This document shows, piece after piece, positions 4,626-56,833 of a stretch of 64,000 nt of DNA; positions within the stretch are counted from its first letter, which is position 1; each line of letters starts with the position of its first letter. This stretch comes from an uncultured virus (IMG/VR IMGVR_UViG_3300010885_087985). Its lineage: Duplodnaviria; Heunggongvirae; Uroviricota; Caudoviricetes. Made by a program: the position numbers and the translations under genes. The notes under the pieces are model-generated. The model was not told the origin of the DNA. It searched no databases and saw only the letters and a list, made by a program, of their open reading frames with translations. The DNA lies in IMG/VR virus record IMGVR_UViG_3300010885_087985; one strand, 5' to 3'.

Positions 4626-5009
4626 TTAAAACATTTTAATTTGTGAAGTGTTTTTAAGTTTTCGTGCTTGGATTTGAACAATTTTTTGTTGTGGTTTATT
4701 ATAACTTTCCATAAGAGACTCTATAGTTTTTGAGCTATTGTCTCCTAATAAGTTTAATATTTTAGATTCAATCATATCTTGTGTGTAATCCCCAGCACCA
4801 TCATATCCTTTTCCTGACCATAATTTCAAAAAAAAGACGCAATGAGAAGGACCATTCCGAACACGTACCTTTACAGTTACTATTTTATGATAATTGTTGT
4901 CGGTTAATATAATTTCTAGATCAGAACAAACAACAGGTTCGTATGTTGTGATAACTCCATCTCGATTTGTAGGCGGTGGAGTGAAAGTTATTGGGTTAGT
5001 AAGAATCAT
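4626..5009 (-). CDS. hypothetical protein
   Basis: ORF preceded by ACATATAT motif. Confidence 0.6.
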   Translation of the reverse strand: MILTNPITFTPPPTNRDGVITTYEPVVCSDLEIILTDNNYHKIVTVKVRVRNGPSHCVFFLKLWSGKGYDGAGDYTQDMIESKILNLLGDNSSKTIESLMESYNKPQQKIVQIQARKLKNTSQIKMF

Positions 5010-5151: not shown

Positions 5152-5367
5152 ATGTTGGATATTGAAGAAAAAATTAAGAGAATAATTCTGGAACAAGTAG
5201 GAATAGAGGTCACAAAAGCAACTCTGCTGGCAGAGATTGTAGAAGATAGTTTAAGCAAAATAGATTTACTTTTTCATATTGAGAAAGAATTAGATAAAAG
5301 TATTAGTCAAGATGAAGTATTAAATTTAGAAACGGTTGGGGATTTAGTAGAAGCAATGACACCATGA
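5152..5367 (+). CDS. acyl carrier protein
   Basis: 71 aa, acidic; DSL phosphopantetheine site followed by IDLLFHIEKE; C-terminal TVGDLV. Confidence 0.8.
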   Translation: MLDIEEKIKRIILEQVGIEVTKATLLAEIVEDSLSKIDLLFHIEKELDKSISQDEVLNLETVGDLVEAMTP

Positions 5368-6485
5368 ATATTAGGAAAAAAGACACTACAGAAACGTTCA
5401 TTGAAAAATCGGAAAAGACGCATGGGAAGAAATATTGTTATGATAAAGTAAAGTACGTAGGCTCCAGAACAAAAGTTAGTATAATTTGCAATGAGTTTGT
5501 AGATGGTGTAAAAGTAGGGTGTGGAATTACTTTTTCGCAAACACCAGGAGACCATATTCGAGGGCAGGGATGTCCGAGCTGTAAAAACAAAGACACTACA
5601 GAAACGTTCATTAAAAAATCGGAAAAGAAGCATGGGAAGAAATATTGTTATGATAAAGTAAAGTACGTAGGCTCACAAATAAAAGTTAGTATAATTTGCA
5701 ACGAGTTTGTAGATGGTGTAAAAGTAGGGTGTGGAATTACTTTTTCGCAAAGTCCAAATAGCCATATTGGAGGGCATGGATGTCCAAATTGTAACATTGG
5801 TATAAAAGACACTACAGAAACGTTCATTGAAAAATCGGAAAAGAAGCATGGGAAGAAATATTGTTATGATAAAGTAAAGTACATCAACGCCAGAAAAAAA
5901 GTCCGTATAATTTGTAAAAAGATTGTAGATGGTGTAAAAGTAGGGTGTGGAATTACTTTTTCGCAAACACCAAATGGCCATATTCAAGGGAGGGGATGTC
6001 CAAATTGTACTTATTCAAAGGGCGAAAAAGCTATTCTAAAGTTTTTTGAAGATAAAGGATGGAAAGAAGGAGTAAACTTCTTGCACCAACATAAAACAAA
6101 AACATGCCGCATAGACTTTGTAATAAAAGAATTAAATCTGTTAATAGAATATAATGGGGAGCAGCATTATATCCCGACCAGCTTTGGTTCTAAAAGAAAA
6201 AATGCACACATTATTAACCTAAAAAGAAATATAAATAGTGATCATAAAAGAATAAAGTTCTGTTTGAAAAAAGGTTCTCTTTTGATTATTCCATATTGGG
6301 ATTTTAAAAATATAAAACAAATATTGGAAGATTTTTTAGAAGGTAGAATGCCAACTTTTTCTAAACCACCCAAAGAAGTTATAAAATATAAAAAAATTAG
6401 AGACAGAATTAGGAAAGAGTTGAAAATTACTGGAGCAGAAATATTGTGTGGAGTTGTTAGGGAAAGAGAGAAAGTTTGCATTTAG
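5364..6485 (+). CDS. free-standing putative homing endonuclease: three Zn-ribbon repeats plus Vsr/PD-(D/E)XK-like domain
   Basis: 3x (TTETFIEKS..HGKKYCYDKV..C..CG..H..G.GCP.C), then SKGE..DF..IEYNGEQHY..IPYW. Confidence 0.8.
   Translation: MNIRKKDTTETFIEKSEKTHGKKYCYDKVKYVGSRTKVSIICNEFVDGVKVGCGITFSQTPGDHIRGQGCPSCKNKDTTETFIKKSEKKHGKKYCYDKVKYVGSQIKVSIICNEFVDGVKVGCGITFSQSPNSHIGGHGCPNCNIGIKDTTETFIEKSEKKHGKKYCYDKVKYINARKKVRIICKKIVDGVKVGCGITFSQTPNGHIQGRGCPNCTYSKGEKAILKFFEDKGWKEGVNFLHQHKTKTCRIDFVIKELNLLIEYNGEQHYIPTSFGSKRKNAHIINLKRNINSDHKRIKFCLKKGSLLIIPYWDFKNIKQILEDFLEGRMPTFSKPPKEVIKYKKIRDRIRKELKITGAEILCGVVREREKVCI
5379..6010 (+). repeat. three near-identical 210-216 bp tandem repeats
   Basis: Units begin AAAGACACTACAGAAACGTTCATT at 5379, 5589 and 5805. 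Confidence 0.9.
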
Positions 6486-6575: not shown

Positions 6576-7982
6576 ATGAAAACTTGTGATATCGTAGGCT
6601 TTGAACATCTCCATCTTCATACAGATTTTAGTCTTTTAGATGGCTTCGGTTTAACAGAGGAATATGCCCAAAGGGCACCTCAAATTAATCAGAAATTTCT
6701 TACTGTGAGCGATCACGGTATGCTTGGTGCTGTACCAAGACAAATAAAAGCATGTGAAAGAATAAATGAAAAGAAAGGCAAAGACACTTTATCCCCTATA
6801 TTTGCCGCCGAACTTTATATTAATCGCCTTCAGCCAGAATCAAATGGACTAGCAGACGTTCAAAAGTTTATTCTGGATCTCAATGAAGAAGAGAAGAGTG
6901 AAATAAAAGCCAGTCCGCATCTTTTAGCAATTGCATATAACGATATTGGATATAAAAACCTTGTTAGACTTACTAGTTGGGGTTGGACTAAAGGCTTTTA
7001 TAGAAAGCCAAGAGTTAATTATGAACAGCTTATAAAACATAAAGAAGGCTTATTCTTCACTAGTTGCTGCTATAGTAGCGAAGTAGGCAGAGCTTTTGAT
7101 AAAGGCGGTGAAGAAGCAGCTTGTGCCGTTATTGAACGATATGTAGAAATGGTTGGTAAAGACCATTACTTCTTGGAATTAATGCTTTTAGATTTTAAGA
7201 AGCAAAAGCCTTATGATGCTTTTATAATTAAGGCACATGAAAAGTACGGATTGCCACTCATTTTGTCTAACGACTGTCATTATTGCAATCAGGAAGACAG
7301 TAAGTTTCAAAGACTTATGTTGATGGTTCAGACCAATAGAACTGTTCAAGAAATACAAAAGGCGATAGAAGCCGATGAGGCACAAGACTTTTTTGAGTTA
7401 CAGGATGCTAGTTTATGGATGAAAAGCGAAGAAGAATTAAATAAAAAATGGTTAGACCAATATTCGGACACGATACCATATGAATTATTTTGTGAAGCTA
7501 AAAGGAATACAGTAAAAATTTGTGAAAGAGCAAAAGGTGTTCAGCTAGATAGAAGTTTAAAGCTTCCCATACTTCCTGACGCAGATGAATCTCTTAAAGA
7601 AGAAGTAATGAAAGGATTTGCTTTTAGAAATCTTCCAAAAAATAAAGAATATTTAGAAAGAATAAAAGAAGAATATTCCCTTATAACAAGAAAGGGTTTT
7701 TCTAGTTATTTTTTGATTCAAAAAATGATGACAGACGAGGCACGAAGGATTTGCCCTAGTTTGTTAGGGTGGGGCGATGGCAGTCAAGCCGTTGGCCCCG
7801 GGCGGGGGTCGGCTGCTGGAGCTTTGACTTGTTATTGTTTAGGGATAACTAATGTAGATCCAGTGGCAGAAGGACTTTTGTTTAGTCGTTTTATGAGTGA
7901 AGCAAGAGGAGGAAGATCTATATCTTTAGAATTTAAGAATATTGATCCATTACCTGTTAGTGAAGTTTTTGATGGAAATTAA
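6576..7982 (+). CDS. dnaE: DNA polymerase III alpha, N-terminal half (PHP domain plus start of palm)
   Basis: HLHLHTDFSLLDG, SDHG, NDCHY, GFSSYFLI, VGPGRGSAAG, LLFSRF; stops just before PDID. Confidence 0.92.
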   Translation: MKTCDIVGFEHLHLHTDFSLLDGFGLTEEYAQRAPQINQKFLTVSDHGMLGAVPRQIKACERINEKKGKDTLSPIFAAELYINRLQPESNGLADVQKFILDLNEEEKSEIKASPHLLAIAYNDIGYKNLVRLTSWGWTKGFYRKPRVNYEQLIKHKEGLFFTSCCYSSEVGRAFDKGGEEAACAVIERYVEMVGKDHYFLELMLLDFKKQKPYDAFIIKAHEKYGLPLILSNDCHYCNQEDSKFQRLMLMVQTNRTVQEIQKAIEADEAQDFFELQDASLWMKSEEELNKKWLDQYSDTIPYELFCEAKRNTVKICERAKGVQLDRSLKLPILPDADESLKEEVMKGFAFRNLPKNKEYLERIKEEYSLITRKGFSSYFLIQKMMTDEARRICPSLLGWGDGSQAVGPGRGSAAGALTCYCLGITNVDPVAEGLLFSRFMSEARGGRSISLEFKNIDPLPVSEVFDGN

Positions 7983-8749: not shown

Positions 8750-9652
8750 ATGAAATATAAAACCTTCCAAGAGTATATTGATACCAATAAAAAATTGGTT
8801 GTTAAGCCAAAAGTTGAGAAGGTAGCAGATTATTCAGGCGATGTAGTCCGTAAGCCTGAAAAAGAGAAAATGCACAAGCACGCTGGTGGAAAAGGACCAG
8901 TCGGAGAACCTGCTTCATATATTTCAGGAACGAATGGTCAAAACCCTAACAAAGATGATCCAAAAGCTTTAGGACATAAGGGAATGAAAAACCTACAAAA
9001 GAAAAGCGTTAGCGAGTGGATTAATGAAACAAAAAACTTGTCCATGGCAGAATTTACAAAAGATCTAACAAAGAATGAATGCAGATGTCAAATACATGAT
9101 CTTGCAAAAGATGTTATTGAATCTTGTAAGTGTAATAAGGAAAACGTATCAACATTGGTCAGAGCTGTTAAACGAAGCAAAATTTTTGAATCATTTTTGC
9201 TAGAGATGTTGAGCCACGACGAAGCATTAAAGATATTAGCAAAAATAGCAGTAACAAATGAGCATTATTCAAAAAAATTGTTAAATACAATTAATGAAAT
9301 GGTTGCTACTCCGATTGGGTTTGGACCAGACGTAGAAGGGGATGAGTCAGAATATGACTCGGAGAATGAACCTGAAGAAGACTCTGAGGAAGGCTCTGAG
9401 GAAGACTCTGAGGAAGGCTCCGAAGACGCTGAATATGATTCTGAAGAAGGCTCTGAAGAAGACTCTGAGGAAGGCTCCGAAGACGCTGAATACGATGCTG
9501 AGGAAGACGCCGAAGAAGACGCTGAAGAAGAAGACGAAGGCGAAGAAGGCGATGACTCAGGAAAAACCTACCATCACCACCACCATCATCACCACCATCA
9601 TCATAACAAAAATAAAATAGATGGAAATTTTGATTCCAGTGTGCTTCAGTAA
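8750..9652 (+). CDS. hypothetical protein with acidic repeat and His11 tract
   Basis: RBS AGGAGA; N-terminus MKYKTFQEYI; (EEDSEEGS)n; 11 His. Confidence 0.75.
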   Translation: MKYKTFQEYIDTNKKLVVKPKVEKVADYSGDVVRKPEKEKMHKHAGGKGPVGEPASYISGTNGQNPNKDDPKALGHKGMKNLQKKSVSEWINETKNLSMAEFTKDLTKNECRCQIHDLAKDVIESCKCNKENVSTLVRAVKRSKIFESFLLEMLSHDEALKILAKIAVTNEHYSKKLLNTINEMVATPIGFGPDVEGDESEYDSENEPEEDSEEGSEEDSEEGSEDAEYDSEEGSEEDSEEGSEDAEYDAEEDAEEDAEEEDEGEEGDDSGKTYHHHHHHHHHHHNKNKIDGNFDSSVLQ

Positions 9653-9765: not shown

Positions 9766-12700
9766 ATGAATAATCCTATTAAAGAAAAAATACTTGATAT
9801 TTGCAAGAAAAATCTTATAGAAAAAGGTTTGTTTAATGATGCTCGTTATCAAAAAAGATTAAAGTGGGAAATAGAGGAAATAGAAGCGAAAAATAAAATT
9901 GATTATTTTTATAATTTATATGAGAAAAATATAAGATACGCTGTTAATCAGAATAACCTTTTAATTTGCTGGCTATTAGGAGTTGTATCCGAACATTCAA
10001 TAGAATTGGATCCAACGTGTACATATGGAGATTTTCCTGATATAGACTCGGATTATATCCAGCAGGTAAGAAATTATATTAAAGAAAGTTGGGCACCAAA
10101 AACTTTTGGAGAAGAATATGTTTGCAATATTGGAAATTATACTACATTTGGAATCAAGTCTGCTTTAATTGATATGGTTCGTGTTTATGGTAAAAGTAGA
10201 GATGAAATTCTTGGATTAACAAAAAGTTTAGATGCAAAAGACGACGAAGGCAAAGATATGACATGGGACGCAGCAATGAAGCTGTATCCTGATTTAAAAA
10301 AATACTGCTCGGACAACAAAGATATAGCAGAATCTGCTAAGAAACTACTGCATAGAAACAGAGGCATGGGAGTTCATGCAGGTGGTCTTATCATTTCAAG
10401 TACACCTTTATCTGACTTAGTACCGCTTGTTAAAAGGAAAGACAGCCCACAAGCGTCTTCTTGGGTAGAAGGTCTTCATGGGCAAGATTTGCAACCTGTT
10501 GGTCTTGTAAAGTTTGATCTATTGGTTGTTTCTAACTTATTACAAGTTGCACTTTGTTGTGAATTGGTTAAGTCCAGACACAATTTAGAAAGTATATGTG
10601 CATTAAAAGGTAGGTCAGATTGGAGTGATGTTGCTGCTTGGAGAAATGATCCTCTTAGCATTAGCATGGCAAATATAGGCGATCTTAAAGGCATATTTCA
10701 ATTTGACAGTGAAACAGTCAGGAACATGTGCCGAACAGGAGGTGTGGATAATTTTGAAGATTTAGTTGCCTATACGAGCCTTAACAGACCTTCCGCATTA
10801 AACATGAAAATGCAGGAAAGGTATATAGAAAGAAAAAAGAAGAGAGAAGATTATCAACTGCACCCATTAATGCAGCCGATATTAGGCGAAACTTATGGCG
10901 TGATGATTTATCAAGAACAAGTAATGAGAGTGCTTAATGTTGTTGGTAACATACCGCTAAAAGATTGCGAGTTAGTAAGAAAAGCAATATCAAAAAAGAA
11001 GGTAGAGAGTTTTATAAAGTATAAAGAGGCTTTTTTAATAAATGGTAAAAAGAATCTTGGAATAAGTGAAGAAGCAATAAACCATCTGTATCAGCAAGTT
11101 GAAGCTTTTTCTGAATATGGATTTAATAAATCTGTGCACCAAGATACATATATACCTACGCCTAAAGGACTTAAGAAAATTTGTGATTTTCAAAAAGGCG
11201 ATAAGGTTTATTGCATAGATGAACAAGGGAACAAAGCAGAAACTTTTGTAGTTAATTTACATGATCACGGAATATTAGAAGGACACAAGGTTGTTTTTGA
11301 TGATGGGTATGAAATAATTTGTACCATAGATCATAAATTTTTAACCGAGGATGGACAAATTTCGCTTCGTGAAATACTGGCTAAAGATGTTTCTATATTT
11401 TGTGAAAAAGAATACGGAGAAAAATATGCCAGCAAAAAAAGAATCAAAAGCTCGTTGCGGAGAAATATTTCCATCAAAGTCGTTGATGCTGAAGCACCAG
11501 TCAGCTTGTCGAGAGTGTCGAAGGTTGGGCTGGGGCGGCGGAAAGACTTTCAAATCTCGATGTCAAATAGAATTTCAAAGAATGATTCCGAGAGACAAGC
11601 ATCTAAAAACTTGCGAAGATTGCGAAAGAATAAAACGAGAAAATATAAAAGCAAAGAATTTAAAGACAAATCGCTCGGAAGGTCATCGGAGAGCCTCTTC
11701 TGTTTCTGCAAGAAAAACATCTGCCCGCCCAGAGATACAAGCACAAAGAGCAGAACGATTGAAAAAGTGGAGAGAAGAAAACCCAGAAAAATTTGCAAAA
11801 TGCACAGAAGCTGCATGGAAAAGTCCAAAACGATCAAAAATGGAAGCTTGGTTGCGTGCCCAGTTAAAATGGGGAACCAAGAAAATTCGTTGTGGGAAAA
11901 GGTCGGATCGAAAGTGGAAGCAGGTAGATATGACGAAAGGAAAAATTTGGATAGAAGTAGACGGATTTTATCATTTTTACGAGCATCAAAGCAACAAACC
12001 AATAAATTTTCGGTTGCCGATTGTTCAACAGCGAGATGCCATGTTGAACGAAGAGTGTTTAAGAAGAAAAGATGTGATGTTAATAAGAGTGGGCATGTCA
12101 TGCTTCCACAGCAGCACGGGAAGAATGGCGTTGGATTGGTGGGAAGTATTTCAGAACATGCTTCAATCTCCAATACCGGGAGTCTGGTGTCTAGGAAAAT
12201 TTTACGAGTCTTGCCCATGGGCAGGCATCAAATGTACGATCTTGAAGTTTCCAATCGAACACACAACTTTATTTTGCCCAACGGAATAGTAACGAGCAAC
12301 AGTCATGCTGTTGCATATACATATATTTCTTCTTATCTTCTTTACTTGAAATCTCACTATCCAAATGAATTTTACACTAGTATCTTAAGGTGCGAAAAAT
12401 CAAGTGAAAAAATAAAAGAATACAAAATGGAAGCAAAAGGGCATGGTGTGCAAGTCTGTGGTTTGAATATAAATAGGTCAAAAATAAGTTTTGATTTGCA
12501 AGAAGACATTATATACTTTGGTTTTTCTAACATTAAAGGTATTGGTGAAGCTCCCGCCACAAGAATTATAGAGTGTCAACCGTATAAAGATTTTGAAGAC
12601 TTTCTTGAAAGGTTCGGAACAGAGGCAAATGTTTTAAAGCCATTGATAGGATTGCGATGCTTTACTGAAAGTGACCCTGTAACGCTTTGGAGGTTTGCAG

Positions 12701-13713
12701 AAAAATATAAAAATTATTTCAAGAAAAAAGAAGAAAAGCAAAAAAGACATATAGCGACTATGCTAAAATATGACAATGAGTTTAAATCTTTATTTCCAAA
12801 TGAAACAACTAACCTATCTGATATAAAAAGCACCAACCCTTATAAATTGGACTATTGGAAGAAGTATGATGTCGAAGAGGTTCGTTATGTTGAAGGTAGC
12901 ATTAAATGCGAAAAAGATGAAGACGGTGCAATTGCAAAGCTAACCAATGGCACAGTTACTTTAGATTGTGGCGTTACTATAGAAAAAGAAATTGTTGTAT
13001 ACTACAAAAAAGTTAAGAATAAGAAAAGCTTTAACCCTCTTAATTCTTTTAAAAAGTTGTGGGACAAAAGAAATAGATCAATAGAAAAAAATAAAAATAA
13101 TGAAAAAAACTCACCAAAACTCGGTGATTTTAATGATTTAGATGCCAAATTAGATGCCGAAACAGAGGAGGAAATATCAAATTACATAGCATGTGAGAGG
13201 AAGTATTATGGGTTTTCCTTGGCACATCCATTAGAATTCAGCCCAGATCATAACGTTAAATTAACATTTAATAACTTAAGAGATTATTCTACAGTAACAA
13301 ATAACTCGGAAAAAGGGTCACCAAGTGCCTCAGTTGGACCAGTTGAGGTGTGTGTTATTAAGACCAATAAGACTAAAAGTAAGAAAGGAACAGTATACTA
13401 TCATTTGACCGCAGAGGATATTACAGGACAAGAAAACAAAATAATTATTTGGCAAGATGATTGGGAAAGATGGAAAGAAGAATTTTTAGTAGGTAACTTA
13501 CTTAGATTGAGGCTACAGGCACCTTCAAATGGGTTTTTTACTTTTTCGTTAGAAAGCAACCAACATAAGCCTAACCGTCGTGGTAAAAATACATCTGATA
13601 AAAAAGATGATTTTAGAGTTGCTATAATGAAAAAAGGAGTAATAGATAATACAATTACACAAGAAGACTGTCTTATGCAATTTGAAAAATGTACAATGAA
13701 AAAACAACAATAG
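9766..13713 (+). CDS. dnaE: DNA polymerase III alpha, C-terminal half (palm, fingers, HhH, OB), with intein
   Basis: FPDIDSD, GVHAGG, GLVKFDLL, GIFQF, YQEQVM, YGFNK|SHAVAY, IKGIG. Confidence 0.92.
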   Translation: MNNPIKEKILDICKKNLIEKGLFNDARYQKRLKWEIEEIEAKNKIDYFYNLYEKNIRYAVNQNNLLICWLLGVVSEHSIELDPTCTYGDFPDIDSDYIQQVRNYIKESWAPKTFGEEYVCNIGNYTTFGIKSALIDMVRVYGKSRDEILGLTKSLDAKDDEGKDMTWDAAMKLYPDLKKYCSDNKDIAESAKKLLHRNRGMGVHAGGLIISSTPLSDLVPLVKRKDSPQASSWVEGLHGQDLQPVGLVKFDLLVVSNLLQVALCCELVKSRHNLESICALKGRSDWSDVAAWRNDPLSISMANIGDLKGIFQFDSETVRNMCRTGGVDNFEDLVAYTSLNRPSALNMKMQERYIERKKKREDYQLHPLMQPILGETYGVMIYQEQVMRVLNVVGNIPLKDCELVRKAISKKKVESFIKYKEAFLINGKKNLGISEEAINHLYQQVEAFSEYGFNKSVHQDTYIPTPKGLKKICDFQKGDKVYCIDEQGNKAETFVVNLHDHGILEGHKVVFDDGYEIICTIDHKFLTEDGQISLREILAKDVSIFCEKEYGEKYASKKRIKSSLRRNISIKVVDAEAPVSLSRVSKVGLGRRKDFQISMSNRISKNDSERQASKNLRRLRKNKTRKYKSKEFKDKSLGRSSESLFCFCKKNICPPRDTSTKSRTIEKVERRKPRKICKMHRSCMEKSKTIKNGSLVACPVKMGNQENSLWEKVGSKVEAGRYDERKNLDRSRRILSFLRASKQQTNKFSVADCSTARCHVERRVFKKKRCDVNKSGHVMLPQQHGKNGVGLVGSISEHASISNTGSLVSRKILRVLPMGRHQMYDLEVSNRTHNFILPNGIVTSNSHAVAYTYISSYLLYLKSHYPNEFYTSILRCEKSSEKIKEYKMEAKGHGVQVCGLNINRSKISFDLQEDIIYFGFSNIKGIGEAPATRIIECQPYKDFEDFLERFGTEANVLKPLIGLRCFTESDPVTLWRFAEKYKNYFKKKEEKQKRHIATMLKYDNEFKSLFPNETTNLSDIKSTNPYKLDYWKKYDVEEVRYVEGSIKCEKDEDGAIAKLTNGTVTLDCGVTIEKEIVVYYKKVKNKKSFNPLNSFKKLWDKRNRSIEKNKNNEKNSPKLGDFNDLDAKLDAETEEEISNYIACERKYYGFSLAHPLEFSPDHNVKLTFNNLRDYSTVTNNSEKGSPSASVGPVEVCVIKTNKTKSKKGTVYYHLTAEDITGQENKIIIWQDDWERWKEEFLVGNLLRLRLQAPSNGFFTFSLESNQHKPNRRGKNTSDKKDDFRVAIMKKGVIDNTITQEDCLMQFEKCTMKKQQ
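11131..12300 (+). mobile_element. 390-aa intein in DnaE (Ser1 ... Ser-Asn, +1 Ser)
   Basis: Interrupts FNK|SH; block A SVHQDTYIPT, block B CTIDHKFL, block F MYDLEV, block G HNFILPNGIVTSN. Confidence 0.92.
11426..12289 (+). CDS. Vsr/DUF559-like (PD-(D/E)XK) putative homing endonuclease overprinted in the +1 frame of the DnaE intein
   Basis: GGAGA 5 nt before ATG; CxxC pairs and basic helical region; SKME..VD..IWIEVDGFYHF..QQRD..LIRV. Confidence 0.8.
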   Translation: MPAKKESKARCGEIFPSKSLMLKHQSACRECRRLGWGGGKTFKSRCQIEFQRMIPRDKHLKTCEDCERIKRENIKAKNLKTNRSEGHRRASSVSARKTSARPEIQAQRAERLKKWREENPEKFAKCTEAAWKSPKRSKMEAWLRAQLKWGTKKIRCGKRSDRKWKQVDMTKGKIWIEVDGFYHFYEHQSNKPINFRLPIVQQRDAMLNEECLRRKDVMLIRVGMSCFHSSTGRMALDWWEVFQNMLQSPIPGVWCLGKFYESCPWAGIKCTILKFPIEHTTLFCPTE

Positions 13714-40690: not shown

Positions 40691-41431
40691 ATGTGGCATT
40701 TTACAGCCGATTGGCATCTTAACCATATAAACATAATAAAGTATTGCAATCGACCTTTTCTTACAGAATACGAAAAAGCAACTATTTCTCTTGCTAAAAA
40801 AGGGTGTATATCGTTAAAGAGCGTTACAATAGATCAAGACGCAGTTAAAAAGATGAACAACTGCATAATTGAATCAACAAACAACACCGTTGCTTCTGAC
40901 GATAATTTAGTTATTTTAGGGGATTTTTGTTGGAGCAGCACAACAAAAAAAGACGTCGCAGACTTCTTTGACAGGATAAATTGCAAGAATATATATCTTA
41001 TTTTCGGAAACCATGATAATAGAAAAGTTCTATCTTCTTTTTTTAAAGCTATTTATGACCACCATGTTTTTTATATAGAAAAGCAAAATATTTTTACGAG
41101 TCACTATCCTTGTAGATCTTGGCCTAGTTCAAATTATGGTTCTTGGATGTTGTATGGACACGTACATAACAAATTAAAACAACAAGATGATTGCGTCCTC
41201 AGCTTGGAAGAAAAAGAAACTATTAAGAGCAGGATAGAAGATTTAACAGAATTCAAAGTAGAACCAGAAAAAGTTGATATTTTTGTTAAATCAATGCAAA
41301 CTTTGTTTTTGAAGAATAATCTTACGTTAGATGTTGGAGTGGATAATATAAGAGAGGAAGTTCCATTTGGAACACCGTGGAGTTTTAATGATATTAAGTT
41401 CCACATGGAAAAAAAGCTAATCAATGAGTAG
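40691..41431 (+). CDS. calcineurin-like metallophosphoesterase
   Basis: DWH, GD, GNHD, HYP, GHVH, DVGVD. Confidence 0.9.
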   Translation: MWHFTADWHLNHINIIKYCNRPFLTEYEKATISLAKKGCISLKSVTIDQDAVKKMNNCIIESTNNTVASDDNLVILGDFCWSSTTKKDVADFFDRINCKNIYLIFGNHDNRKVLSSFFKAIYDHHVFYIEKQNIFTSHYPCRSWPSSNYGSWMLYGHVHNKLKQQDDCVLSLEEKETIKSRIEDLTEFKVEPEKVDIFVKSMQTLFLKNNLTLDVGVDNIREEVPFGTPWSFNDIKFHMEKKLINE

Positions 41432-54776: not shown

Positions 54777-55367
54777 TTGACAGGAAACAGTAAGTTGGAA
54801 CATATTTATCAACAAGATAGTTTTGGAGAAAATTGGTTTACATATCCAAATCTATATTCAAAAATGGTTCATGAGCATCCTAGTGGATCTCATTTCGTTG
54901 AAGTCGGTTCGTGGAAGGGGAAATCTTCGGCTTATATGGGTGTTATAATCGCAAACAGCAATAAAGGAATTAAATTTGATTGCATAGACACCTGGCTCGG
55001 AAGTACGGAGCATATAGAAACCATGAAGAATCTTGGCAATGATTTGTTGTATAGTACTTTTATAAACAACATGAAACCATTAGAAGACTACTATAGTGCC
55101 GTTAGAATGTCATCTGTGGACGCTAGCAAAACATATAAAAATGAATCTTTGGACTTTGTATTTATTGATGCCGCTCATGAATGCGAAAGGGTTAAAGAAG
55201 ATATTGAAGCATGGTTCCCTAAAGTTAAAATAGGAGGATATTTAGCTGGACATGATTATGATTTTTATGCTCCTGATGTAGAAAAAGCAGTGAACGAATC
55301 CCCTCTTGTTCAACCTTTTACAGTGTCAGAATCGTGTTGGATACATCTAAAAATTAGAAAGTCGTAG
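54777..55367 (+). CDS. class I SAM-dependent methyltransferase (Methyltransf_24-like)
   Basis: VEVGSWKGKS, DTW.G, FIDAAH, GG..AGHDY. Confidence 0.85.
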   Translation: MTGNSKLEHIYQQDSFGENWFTYPNLYSKMVHEHPSGSHFVEVGSWKGKSSAYMGVIIANSNKGIKFDCIDTWLGSTEHIETMKNLGNDLLYSTFINNMKPLEDYYSAVRMSSVDASKTYKNESLDFVFIDAAHECERVKEDIEAWFPKVKIGGYLAGHDYDFYAPDVEKAVNESPLVQPFTVSESCWIHLKIRKS

Positions 55368-55488
55368 AATAGAGTTTTTGTGTTTGATTTTTAAATAAAT
55401 TCTGGTAGAATCAGAATACCGCGAAGTGGCGAAACGCAAGGGAATTGCTCGTAATATCTTTTAATTGTCTTGTATTCGCTGCTATTGT

Positions 55489-55510
55489 GCCCCTATGGTG
55501 AAATTGGCAA
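55489..55510 (+). pseudogene. orphan 5' fragment of tRNA-Leu (acceptor 5' strand plus D arm start)
   Basis: GCCCCTA-TGGTGAAATTGGCAA; GCCCCTA pairs with TAGGGGT at 56578-56584. Confidence 0.75.
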
Positions 55511-55533
55511 TGATGTGTAGCTTGGAAGTAAAT

Positions 55534-55608
55534 GGCCCGGTAGCCCAATTGGCAGCAGGCACGACACTTAAAATGTCGCAAGTATCGGTTCGAATCCGAT
55601 CCGGGCTA
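55534..55608 (+). tRNA. trnL: tRNA-Leu(UAA), intronless, short variable loop, CCA not encoded
   Basis: Acceptor GGCCCGG/CCGGGCT, anticodon arm CGACA-CTTAAAA-TGTCG, T arm ATCGG-TTCGAAT-CCGAT, discriminator A. Confidence 0.9.
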
Positions 55609-55686
55609 CTTAAAAAGCAGACATGATATTCTTTATTTTTGGTGTATACCTATTAGGTCACTACTCCCTTCAATAAAGGATTAAAA

Positions 55687-56157
55687 ATGAAAATATGTTT
55701 GAATTGCAATCAGTCATTCCCTGCTTATGCTATAGTAAATGGTAAACAAAAACAATTAACTTCAAGAACGTATTGTTTAAAATGTTCACCATTTGGTAAT
55801 AGAAACACAAAAAGATTACATATGCCACCAAGAGATAAAAATAGCAAAAAAGAATGCACAGAATGTGGCAAAGAGTTCAACTGGACAAAAAATAGTGTTT
55901 GTTCTACTTGTAGAAATTGGAAAAGTAGAAAGAATAATAGAAACAAAGCAATAAAATATTGTGGAGCAAAATGCTCTAAATGTGGTGTTAAAGATAATGA
56001 AGTATTAACTTTTCATCACAAAAACGAAAAGACAAAAAAATTTAATTTGTGTCAAAATTGGAATTGTGCATGGTCAATGATCTTATCAGAAATAAAAAAA
56101 TGCGAACTACTTTGTGCTAATTGTCACATGAAACATCACAGAAAAGAAATGCTATGA
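55687..56157 (+). CDS. HNH endonuclease with Zn ribbons
   Basis: Several CxxC; C..CG....L.FHH.....K.F...EI.KC.LLCANCH. Confidence 0.85.
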   Translation: MKICLNCNQSFPAYAIVNGKQKQLTSRTYCLKCSPFGNRNTKRLHMPPRDKNSKKECTECGKEFNWTKNSVCSTCRNWKSRKNNRNKAIKYCGAKCSKCGVKDNEVLTFHHKNEKTKKFNLCQNWNCAWSMILSEIKKCELLCANCHMKHHRKEML

Positions 56158-56372
56158 TTTTTGATCACTGGAGAATGAAATTGAAGGATATAGCGTTAGA
56201 AACGAAAAAGCAATAAGCGACATAATAAACTGTGTTGCAAAAGGCAAAAAAGACGATATAATCAAGGGGATTGATGCCAGCTTATGCTATGGGGCATGAA
56301 CAAGGTTATGATGTTGGATATTATGACGCTAATGAGACTTATTTATTTGAGTGTTTAAGGAGAAATCTTTAA
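56154..56372 (+). pseudogene. frameshifted remnant of a small phage gene
   Basis: Protein-like pieces in successive frames: MIFDHW / ENEIEGYSVRNEKAISDII / AYAMGHEQGYDVGYYDANE. Confidence 0.45.
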
Positions 56373-56536
56373 AATAGAACCTGTCAAATTCGGTGAAGGC
56401 TTAACTGCTAATACCGAGCCAAGCATAGAAATATGAAGGTGTAGAGACTTGACGGCAGGAACCTAAAACATAAAGTTATGGTTAAGGTAAAGTCCAGACC
56501 ACAAACAGAAATGGTAGTGAAAACTATAGTGGTAAG
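56341..56536 (+). ncRNA. group I intron (IC3-like, tRNA-Leu UAA type)
   Basis: P1 ACTT|..GAGT; AAATTCGGTGAA, AATACCGAGCCAAG, GTGTAGAGACTTGACGG, AAGGTAAAGTCCA; P3 CTGTC/GACGG; terminal G before AAAATCCGT. Confidence 0.88.
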
Positions 56537-56585
56537 AAAATCCGTTGCCTGCAAGGGCTTGTCGGTTCAAGTCCGACTAGGGGTA
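56537..56585 (+). pseudogene. 3' exon of tRNA-Leu(UAA)
   Basis: AAAA-TCCGT, long variable arm GCCT-GCAA-GGGC, T arm GTCGG-TTCAAGT-CCGAC, acceptor TAGGGGT-A. Confidence 0.88.
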
Positions 56586-56614
56586 TTTTTTCTTGCCAAT
56601 GTATTGGTATAATT

Positions 56615-56833
56615 ATGGAAAAACTAAAATTTTTAGCAGAAGAAATTTTTGAAGACATTGCTGGAGATCCGGATAACGTCATTCTGAAAATTCCTTCACA
56701 AATACTAGAACGTAATGGATGGAAAGAAGGAGATGAGCTAAACATTGAAGTTGAGGATGGCTCCATTGTAATTTCAAAAGCAACTGGAGTGGTTGAAGAG
56801 TTGCCTGTTCAAATTCCGCCTTCGGTAACTTAA
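56615..56833 (+). CDS. AbrB/MazE-like small protein
   Basis: LKIP..IL...GWKEGD.L.IEV.DG.I.I. Confidence 0.75.
   Translation: MEKLKFLAEEIFEDIAGDPDNVILKIPSQILERNGWKEGDELNIEVEDGSIVISKATGVVEELPVQIPPSVT

Follow-up and report, generated by a model that had tools for sequence, protein, structure and literature searches.

Layout of the locus

The stretch of DNA analysed here (the window) comprises 64,000 nucleotides (nt) of an uncultured Caudoviricetes phage, IMG/VR record IMGVR_UViG_3300010885_087985; its own contig in our metagenome scan, L091, is 153,917 nt long. At 55489–56585 the window holds the two separated ends of a single tRNA-Leu(UAA) gene with a group I intron, and between them lies a foreign block of 825 nt (55511–56335) with an intact tRNA gene of the same anticodon, the gene of a predicted HNH-like endonuclease and a decayed open reading frame (ORF). 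In the list of its parts and below, L-numbers denote the IMG/VR or metagenome loci that were compared, X-numbers denote sequencing runs with Logan contigs, and group D denotes the freshwater phages that form the putative donor group.

55489..55510, + strand: relic 5′ fragment of the old type-II tRNA-Leu(UAA) gene, positions 1–22 (acceptor strand, D-stem 5′ strand, D-loop); an identical 22-mer opens the intact genes in L008, L009 and L012
55511..55533, + strand: 23 nt of donor upstream DNA, 20/23 identical to L016; colinearity with L013–L016 begins here
55534..55609, + strand: intact intronless tRNA, anticodon UAA, short variable arm (type I), A73, G1-U72 (ARAGORN; Rfam 57.7 bits)
55610..55686, + strand: leader of the HNH insert, with motifs AGCAGAC and TTGGTGTAT followed by a ribosome-binding site; of this kind only in HNH-bearing group D loci
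55687..56157, + strand: intact 156-residue HNH-like endonuclease ORF, a candidate free-standing homing endonuclease (phrog_2255, E 3.5e-28)
56154..56335, + strand: pseudogene, the first ~60 codons of a small ORF resident in the donor, with two frameshifts and cut off at the right junction (alignment to L013, L015, L016 and L182)
56336..56340, + strand: relic GACTT, the closing 5 nt of the old 5′ exon (C32, U33 and U34, preceded by the end of the anticodon stem; alignment to intact alleles)
56341..56536, + strand: group I intron without ORF, of the tRNA-Leu(UAA) class and essentially intact in sequence (Rfam 50.6 bits)
56537..56585, + strand: 3′ exon remnant of the old type-II tRNA-Leu(UAA) gene, running from A35 to A73 and including the T-arm and the long variable arm; 48/49 identical to L008 and L009

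ARAGORN predicts a single tRNA in the whole 64-kilobase (kb) window, at 55534–55609 with anticodon taa, and the Rfam tRNA model reaches its 57.7 bits at 55534–55608. The Rfam model Intron_gpI scores 50.6 bits at 56330–56518, just above its gathering score of 50, and reaches 62.6–70.8 bits in intact relatives. The group I intron and the full tRNA between the halves, both of which the original prediction had recognised from the letters of the window alone, are thus borne out by model searches.

The resident tRNA-Leu(UAA) gene and its remains

The exact 22-mer of 55489–55510 occurs at nine IMG/VR loci. At three of these (L008, L009 and L012) it is followed by 8 nt, GACTT, a group I intron of ~200 nt and a 3′ exon resembling that of the window; the remaining six are intronless long-arm tRNA-Leu genes with other anticodon arms. 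BLAST aligns window 56336–56591 with L008 at 92% and with L009 at 91% identity, and 56340–56588 with L012 at 90%, and immediately upstream of the relic some 20–27 nt are similar to L009 and L012. Judged by these intact alleles in related phage loci, 55489–55510 and 56336–56585 once formed the ends of a single type-II tRNA-Leu(UAA) gene that carried a group I intron, as the original prediction had proposed.

Since L008, L009 and L012 all carry 8 nt between the 22-mer and GACTT (ACACAACG in L008 and L009, ACACAACA in L012), 8 nt of the old 5′ exon are gone from the window; a loss had been predicted here, and its size, put at about 10 nt, is corrected by the intact alleles. The lost nucleotides encode the 3′ strand of the D-stem, position 26 and three of the five 5′ bases of the anticodon stem. 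Because neither the D-stem nor the anticodon stem can form, the old gene is dead. What remains of it is nearly unchanged, the 5′ fragment matching at 22 of 22 positions and the 3′ exon at 48 of 49 against L008 and L009, and the sole change in the 3′ exon leaves a G-U pair in place in the variable arm. Intact intron-bearing tRNA-Leu(UAA) genes are also found in two jumbo phages, an uncultured 735-kb phage and Agrobacterium phage Atu_ph07.

The inserted block and its donor group

Window 55510–56335 is colinear with L016 (839 aligned columns, 75% identity by BLAST) and 55510–56332 with L015, and L013 and L014 match 55510–55548 and 55579–56333, on either side of their intron-split tRNA. The boundaries of the block are sharp on both sides in the BLAST alignments. 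In L013–L016 the corresponding region consists of a short upstream stretch (containing TGATATGTAGCTTGGAAGTA), a short-arm tRNA(UAA), a leader of ~70 nt, an ORF and a small ORF; a group I intron is present in the short-arm tRNA(UAA) of L013 and L014 and absent from that of L015 and L016. The ATG of the small ORF overlaps the stop codon of the HNH ORF, and in loci that lack the HNH gene this small ORF is a resident group D gene that stands directly after the tRNA. Its copy in the window is the decayed ORF of the original prediction: it has lost 1 nt at one point and gained 1 nt at another, contains four in-frame stops between these two sites and is truncated at 56335. As the small ORF is a resident donor gene and the 23 nt upstream of the new tRNA are donor DNA, the block is a piece of donor genome that surrounds the nuclease gene and is flanked by donor DNA at either end, and no neat element. 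An intron-bearing gene has thus been destroyed and an intact tRNA of the same anticodon supplied, as predicted; of the proposed HNH-mobilised replacement cassette, the foreign, HNH-centred block is confirmed by the alignments and the defined cassette is contradicted by the donor flanks.

The junctions can be read to the nucleotide. At the left one (55510/55511) the recipient runs ..TTGGCAA/ACAC.., the donor ..CGTTA/TGATATG.. and the window ..TTGGCAA/TGATGTG.., so that recipient and donor have one A in common. At the right one (56335/56336) the donor runs ..GCTAATGA/AGAATG.., the recipient ..CAACG/GACTT.. and the window ..GCTAATGA/GACTT..; donor homology stops at ..AATGA and recipient homology starts at GACTT. 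Because the junctions hold only 0–1 nt of homology, the insertion was an illegitimate capture into a non-syntenic genome and not homing via flanking homology, and the original prediction is wrong where it takes the event for ordinary homing. The exact 24-mer across the left junction has no match in IMG/VR.

The genes that flank the locus in the window encode, by Pfam, a methyltransferase (Methyltransf_24), a MazE/AbrB-like protein and an epimerase, and none of them has a counterpart beside the group D locus. The sole shared backbone gene that was found between the window phage and group D is phosphoesterase-like, has 35–36% protein identity and lies 15 kb away at 40700–41398.

The HNH gene and its association with tRNA-Leu(UAA) genes

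The ORF at 55687–56157 is open, of full length and rich in Cys and His, and it matches the PHROG family phrog_2255 ‘HNH endonuclease’ (E 3.5e-28, residues 1–154 of 156) together with three further HNH PHROGs. Residues H110, H111, N145, H147 and H151 and the CxxC pairs C96/C99 and C143/C146 are invariant in 19 relatives down to 36% identity, giving the sequence motif of an HNH nuclease, His-His..Asn..His plus two CxxC pairs. Relatives at 58–66% identity, all of 156 residues, occur in IMG/VR contigs of 38–205 kb, and the ratio of non-synonymous to synonymous substitution rates (dN/dS) against relatives is 0.22–0.37.

We define the subfamily by at least 52% identity. The metagenome scan added to it L091, three assemblies of the same element (L092, L104 and L158) and a dozen more loci. 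In all 18 loci with upstream sequence, the window included, a tRNA-Leu(UAA) gene ends shortly before the HNH start codon. The distance between the two was 65–78 nt where measured (ten loci, L013 and the window; L102 and L104, which come without upstream sequence, are left out of this count). The pairing spans type-II tRNA genes of 85–87 nt, type-I genes of 74–77 nt and intron-bearing genes, and it recurs in three genomic contexts, those of group D, of the L094 type and of the window. Two different downstream genes follow the insert, which argues that the HNH gene is tied to the end of the tRNA gene and not to its neighbour. A sister subfamily (34–39% identity) lies within about 50–120 nt of other tRNA genes in ten of ten loci, next to tRNA-Arg(UCU) or between tRNA-Asn and tRNA-Glu, and more distant relatives of the C-terminal part are often found in tRNA arrays. 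On the L094 contig the HNH/tRNA-Leu pair stands behind a near-consensus sigma-70 promoter; the same contig has a Pistol ribozyme match (4867–4929, 46.8 bits, gathering score 34.5) ~180 nt upstream of a tRNA-Arg(UCU) gene.

Group D was sampled through the best 80 of 261 relatives of its conserved upstream gene, the top of a ranking and not a random draw. Among these 80 loci, 41 have an intron-bearing tRNA gene, 35 an intronless tRNA-Leu(UAA) and one a tRNA-Leu(CAA), and three are too short to score. Of the 71 loci whose length allows a judgement, 8 have the HNH gene. The intron is found in four of these eight and in 32 of the 63 without the HNH gene, so that nuclease and intron are not linked. 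L008, L009 and L012, which have the old-type gene and no nuclease, are syntenic with nuclease-bearing loci: the upstream gene of 96 residues has 72–100% protein identity, and the downstream genes match. The closest comparison is that of L213, which has the HNH gene, with L187, which lacks it. The two have the same tRNA allele, 1 nt different, and the insert of L213 starts right after the 3′ end of the tRNA and takes the place of the native spacer as far as the following start codon. The same allele thus occurs with and without the nuclease gene, which lends no support to the description of the new tRNA as cleavage-resistant in the original prediction.

In every locus the HNH ORF lies outside any intron or intein, between the 3′ end of the tRNA and the next gene, and its presence varies among syntenic relatives. 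In its distribution it resembles a free-standing homing endonuclease gene linked to tRNA-Leu(UAA) genes. The leader in front of it is present only in the HNH-bearing group D loci, where it takes the place of the normal spacer between the tRNA and the next gene, and it may be a promoter or a protein-binding site. Its motifs AGCAGAC, TTGGTGTAT and TAGACTACA are kept across loci whose coding parts are ~60% identical. A conserved hairpin was considered for the leader and rejected, with a consensus energy of −1.32 kcal/mol and no covarying pairs.

The imported tRNA

The new tRNA folds into a cloverleaf with anticodon UAA, A73, a G1-U72 pair, a 3-bp D-stem and a large D-loop. It is identical to that of L016 at 72 of 75 positions, including a compensatory change at pair 2:71; between the same two loci the adjacent leader and spacer are identical at 48 of 82 positions and the nuclease gene at 341 of 480. 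UUA and UUG together make up 60% of the 737 Leu codons in 19 large ORFs. The contrast between tRNA and spacer, the compensatory change and this codon usage argue that the new tRNA is under selection. Its variable region has only 5 nt and so lacks the long arm of bacterial type-II tRNA-Leu, for which reason the label ‘Leu’ follows from the anticodon and A73 alone. The D-arm is Leu-like, and similar short-arm genes are annotated as tRNA-Leu in Synechococcus phage S-SKS1 and in Cronobacter phages S13 and LPCS28.

How the block may have arrived

We propose, with a probability of roughly 0.6, that a nuclease broke the resident tRNA gene and that repair of the break captured donor DNA. A minority of group D freshwater phages carry the free-standing HNH gene directly after their own tRNA-Leu(UAA) gene, and one of these would have met the window phage in a mixed infection. 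The HNH enzyme, or a close relative of it, would then have broken the resident gene in the part that codes for the 3′ strand of the D-stem and the 5′ strand of the anticodon stem. The break would have been sealed by a nearly homology-free capture of 825 nt of donor DNA, through an end-joining-like process or microhomology-primed copying, with the loss of 8 target nt. The captured piece would start with 23 nt from upstream of the donor tRNA(UAA), take in this tRNA and the HNH insert, and extend through most of the donor gene that follows. The imported tRNA, having the same anticodon, would make the loss of the old gene tolerable. Since the window phage shares no flanking homology with group D, ordinary homing repair is ruled out in this proposal. 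We infer that the enzyme cuts DNA, that it made this break, where it cut and that the infection was mixed, and its cleavage of the old gene only from the position of the insertion.

That position is also the main argument. The tRNA gene with its intron takes up ~290 nt of the 153,917-nt contig, about 0.2% of the possible positions, and a nuclease-made break is favoured because the block sits in a gene of the very type that this HNH family accompanies.

Several observations speak against the proposal. The closest donor found is only 75% identical in DNA, which means that the true donor is unsampled. The window’s own genomic context yielded no pre-insertion allele when searched via the methyltransferase gene and the MazE-like protein: relatives of the former were found at 74 loci (best 58% identity), none with this tRNA locus, and the latter has no relatives in IMG/VR. 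Comparison of anticodon-stem sequences brought out no tRNA feature that separates HNH-linked from HNH-free alleles, so that both a target inside the tRNA gene and an immune new tRNA stay conjectures; if the recognition site were a continuous anticodon stem-loop, it would be absent from the intron-bearing old gene. An insertion that brings a replacement tRNA is best tolerated where it destroys an isoacceptor, and selection together with ascertainment could have placed a random event here. The composite may also have formed in another phage and moved in whole.

Further objections concern the assignment of the enzyme itself. The ORF matches no Pfam family at E 0.01 and no HNH Pfam family at E 10, a sequence search of the Protein Data Bank gave nothing relevant, and a Foldseek search with its AlphaFold2 model (predicted local distance difference test score, pLDDT, 85.9) gave no match at E ≤ 0.001. 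VIA-align places residues ~73–156 on the HNH domains of Cap5, GVE2 HNH, Gme HNH, IscB and Cas9, and on McrA and T4 EndoVII, which fill most of the top 25 rows. These fold matches, with weak Z scores to HNH domains of 3.5–4.7, below the caution level of the tool, are only suggestive.

The main alternative, which we consider less likely, makes the nuclease a passenger: random illegitimate recombination or template switching in a mixed infection, with no HNH-made break, would have joined the two DNAs, and the product would have survived by virtue of its compensating tRNA. Junction homology of 0–1 nt is typical of any illegitimate event and the block is a plain chunk of donor genome. The activity and target of the enzyme are putative, and no feature of the tRNA tracks with the HNH gene. 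Mobile nuclease and split genes also abound in the window phage, pointing to frequent recombination. Yet intergenic insertions would be equally tolerable, and the block nevertheless lies inside one tRNA-Leu(UAA) gene of ~290 nt in a 154-kb contig. It is also centred on the HNH gene, whose family accompanies this type of gene in 18 of 18 loci and three genomic contexts.

A further alternative, which we regard as improbable, concerns where the event happened and not its nature. The composite would have arisen in another phage, for example a group D relative, and a module of ~1.1 kb (about 55462–56591) would have been transferred later. The relic has 90–92% and the block ~75% DNA identity to group D, against 35–36% protein identity for the backbone gene at 40700–41398, and all that is common to group D around the old gene is ~20–27 nt upstream and a few nucleotides downstream, as a transferred module would have it. 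In a group D genome, however, flanking homology would favour a clean allele replacement, the relic halves are found in none of the 80 sampled group D loci, and variants of the composite occur only with the window’s own flanks (L092, L104 and L158).

It is very improbable that the old gene has remained functional, whether through a split or trans-spliced tRNA or because the 825 nt serve as a second intron. Its exons and intron are hardly altered (22/22, 48/49 and three deviations at 214 conserved intron columns) and the P1 pairing ACUU/GAGU at the 5′ splice site is retained, but the 8 nt that encode the 3′ strand of the D-stem and three of the five 5′ bases of the anticodon stem are missing, with no substitute at the ends of the block, and L158 and an X2 contig delete parts of the relic and keep the new tRNA.

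Finally, an assembly chimera of two co-occurring phages with common tRNA or intron sequence, to which we give next to no probability, could be suspected because breaks in the Logan contigs fall on or close to the junctions (for instance, one contig of X4 begins precisely at 55511 and one of X2 stops at 56335) and because many related introns and tRNAs occur in the same lakes, but it is largely refuted by the recurrence of both junctions in other data. At 98–99% identity, other assemblies contain the left junction in L092 and L158 and the right one in L104. Logan contigs of four runs were compared with the window, stretches uncovered in single runs carrying no weight as absence; an X3 contig from an independent DNA run (56279–56455) spans the right junction, and an X19 contig from an RNA library that possibly contains DNA (55455–55627) spans the left.

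A bolder and more doubtful reading also suggests itself. We offer it tentatively: the HNH subfamily would be a homing endonuclease specific for tRNA-Leu(UAA) genes that cuts the 5′ exon in the part coding for the D-arm and anticodon stem and colonises unrelated phages by destroying and replacing their isoacceptor, and repeated replacement would drive allelic diversity. Since the cut would lie in the 5′ exon, an intron in the anticodon loop would give no immunity, and since the HNH gene would always travel with a working tRNA-Leu(UAA) gene, colonisation of unrelated phage genomes would become possible. On that assumption the window would be a preserved footprint marking the cut to within about 10 nt, and the diversity at phage tRNA-Leu loci, with type-I and type-II bodies and with and without intron, would be explained.

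Variants of the locus

In population variants, loss of the HNH gene and of the relics has begun. In L158, window 55732 is joined to 56402 and 55733–56401 is lacking, which removes the nuclease gene, the pseudogene and 61 nt at the start of the intron, and the new tRNA is kept; an X2 variant likewise retains the new tRNA and has lost the rest. The L158 deletion (L158 870–940) lies between short GCT(T)A repeats; the 5′ relic of this assembly has GGAAA where the window has GGCAA, and its upstream gene diverges before window 55322. The X2 variant is record 4 of that run, a contig of 284 nt in which window 55518–55648 is joined, across 17 other letters, to 56608–56637, where the region of the MazE-like gene begins, and which differs upstream of 55518. 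It has a related short-arm tRNA with a compensatory change from C-G to A-T in the anticodon stem and no relics, HNH gene or intron. This contig may be a relic-free derivative or an independent acquisition, and with only 30 nt on the joined side it is a lead. L092 (1–3249) has two tandem copies of the methyltransferase region (window 54782–55362), 96% and 99% identical to that of the window, which reflect either a duplication or an effect of assembly.

Comparison with known systems

Homing endonuclease genes spread between related genomes via homologous repair; to our knowledge, their route into non-homologous genomes is mostly conjecture. In intronless homing, as with Seg and Mob of T4, a sporadic endonuclease gene between conserved genes is inferred to spread by break repair and co-conversion of its flanks, and the classical cases are clean gene conversions. 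The present locus has the sporadic endonuclease gene between conserved genes in common with these cases, and differs from them in its ectopic paste-in, the loss of 8 target nt and the truncated donor flanks. The mobE gene in nrdA of phage Aeh1 is a free-standing endonuclease gene that splits a host gene whose pieces still make a working enzyme. There as here, an endonuclease gene inserted inside a gene leaves pieces; in the window, by contrast, the split gene is dead and its function would be supplied by a gene travelling with the nuclease.

With both halves of the target, the 8 lost nucleotides (from intact alleles) and the donor flanks still readable, the locus would be a natural footprint of a jump with a testable guess at the cut site, and a rare preserved trace of a selfish gene reaching a new genome, that of a lake phage. 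The selfish nuclease would carry a functional spare of the gene it destroys, lowering the cost of invasion, and such carriage may explain the variability of phage tRNA-Leu(UAA) loci. Searches of the literature on phage tRNAs, tRNA-Leu, group I introns, jumbo phages and homing endonucleases brought up no paper that describes the arrangement in its title or the opening of its abstract.

The closest analogue is SegB of T4, a free-standing GIY-YIG endonuclease whose gene lies in the T4 tRNA gene cluster and which cuts tRNA genes at the T-psi-C motif (PMC2330249). It carries its own gene and flanking tRNA genes into T2L and replaces tRNA markers of the recipient, and endonucleases of T5 with ORFs in the tRNA gene cluster are named alongside it (PMC2330249). 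Both systems, on that account, place a free-standing endonuclease gene among phage tRNA genes. SegB, as described there, is a GIY-YIG enzyme with a general T-psi-C motif, whereas the window subfamily is HNH-like and accompanies one tRNA species; and its transfer proceeds via homologous flanks between T-even phages, whereas the capture in the window was illegitimate and non-syntenic and left a split target. Collaborative homing, in the outline that a 2014 review gives of it (PMC3984707), was considered as well and rejected; since nuclease and intron are unlinked (4/8 against 32/63 loci), it does not fit, and the intron-bearing allele in the window would be the victim and not, as in that outline, the protected partner.

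The group I intron

Aligned to the intact alleles, the intron interrupts ..GACTT / intron ..AAG / AAAATCC.., that is, between U34 and A35; position −1 is U, and the intron ends in G. It deviates three times over 214 columns with a conservation of 90% or more, each time within its first 35 nt, compared with 0–3 deviations in 24 close intact relatives. Decay of the intron was therefore rejected as a clock: the window intron lies inside the range of intact relatives and gives no date for the event. Either the insertion is young compared with the divergence from L008-type alleles, or the passenger ORF had decayed before the transfer. The anticodon-stem partner of the relic 3′ exon is missing from the window; the Anabaena intron reportedly requires pairing of the anticodon stem of its 3′ exon.

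An ORF-less intron ~95% identical to that of the window, present in about half of the sampled group D loci, sits in both type-II and type-I tRNA(UAA) bodies (L160–L239, e.g. L217 and L209), which suggests frequent movement between alleles without an intron-encoded enzyme. Record 2 of X19, the RNA library, joins window 56390–56537 back to 56347–56419; it derives from a related intron with 10 differences, jumps back 191 nt near the intron ends with 8 letters between, and could reflect a circular intron RNA or a loop in the assembly. Relatives of the intron core lie inside capsid genes of a deep-sea Chosvirus (L002 2129–3205, where the capsid is annotated as two coding sequences flanking the match) and of Pelagibacter phage HTVC120P.

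As the class is outlined in a preprint (Williams 2020), the window intron belongs to the classical tRNA-Leu(UAA) introns. It agrees with that outline in its insertion point CUU/..g/AAAA in the anticodon loop, the Intron_gpI match, U at −1, the terminal G and the lack of an ORF, and differs from it in residing in phage genomes and in that one intron occurs in both type-I and type-II tRNA bodies. According to the passage on phage introns in the 2014 review, every phage intron then known lay in protein-coding genes (PMC3984707). The present finding is further evidence that group I introns are common in phage tRNA genes.

Other features of the window

A scan for promoters and terminators gave 8 promoter-like sites, with 5.8 expected, and no terminators. 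The window is rich in mobile nuclease genes. Its DNA polymerase is encoded in two ORFs, at 6576–7982 and 9766–13713, both matching phrog_405, and the second of these contains an inserted DNA-binding-like segment. An HNH endonuclease ORF (5364–6485) lies directly upstream of the split polymerase gene, and an ORF of no assigned function (8750–9652) lies between its parts. An ORF of 1142 residues at 52–3480 matches one unknown PHROG, an endonuclease and a short piece of the terminase large subunit, and may be an interrupted or fused gene.

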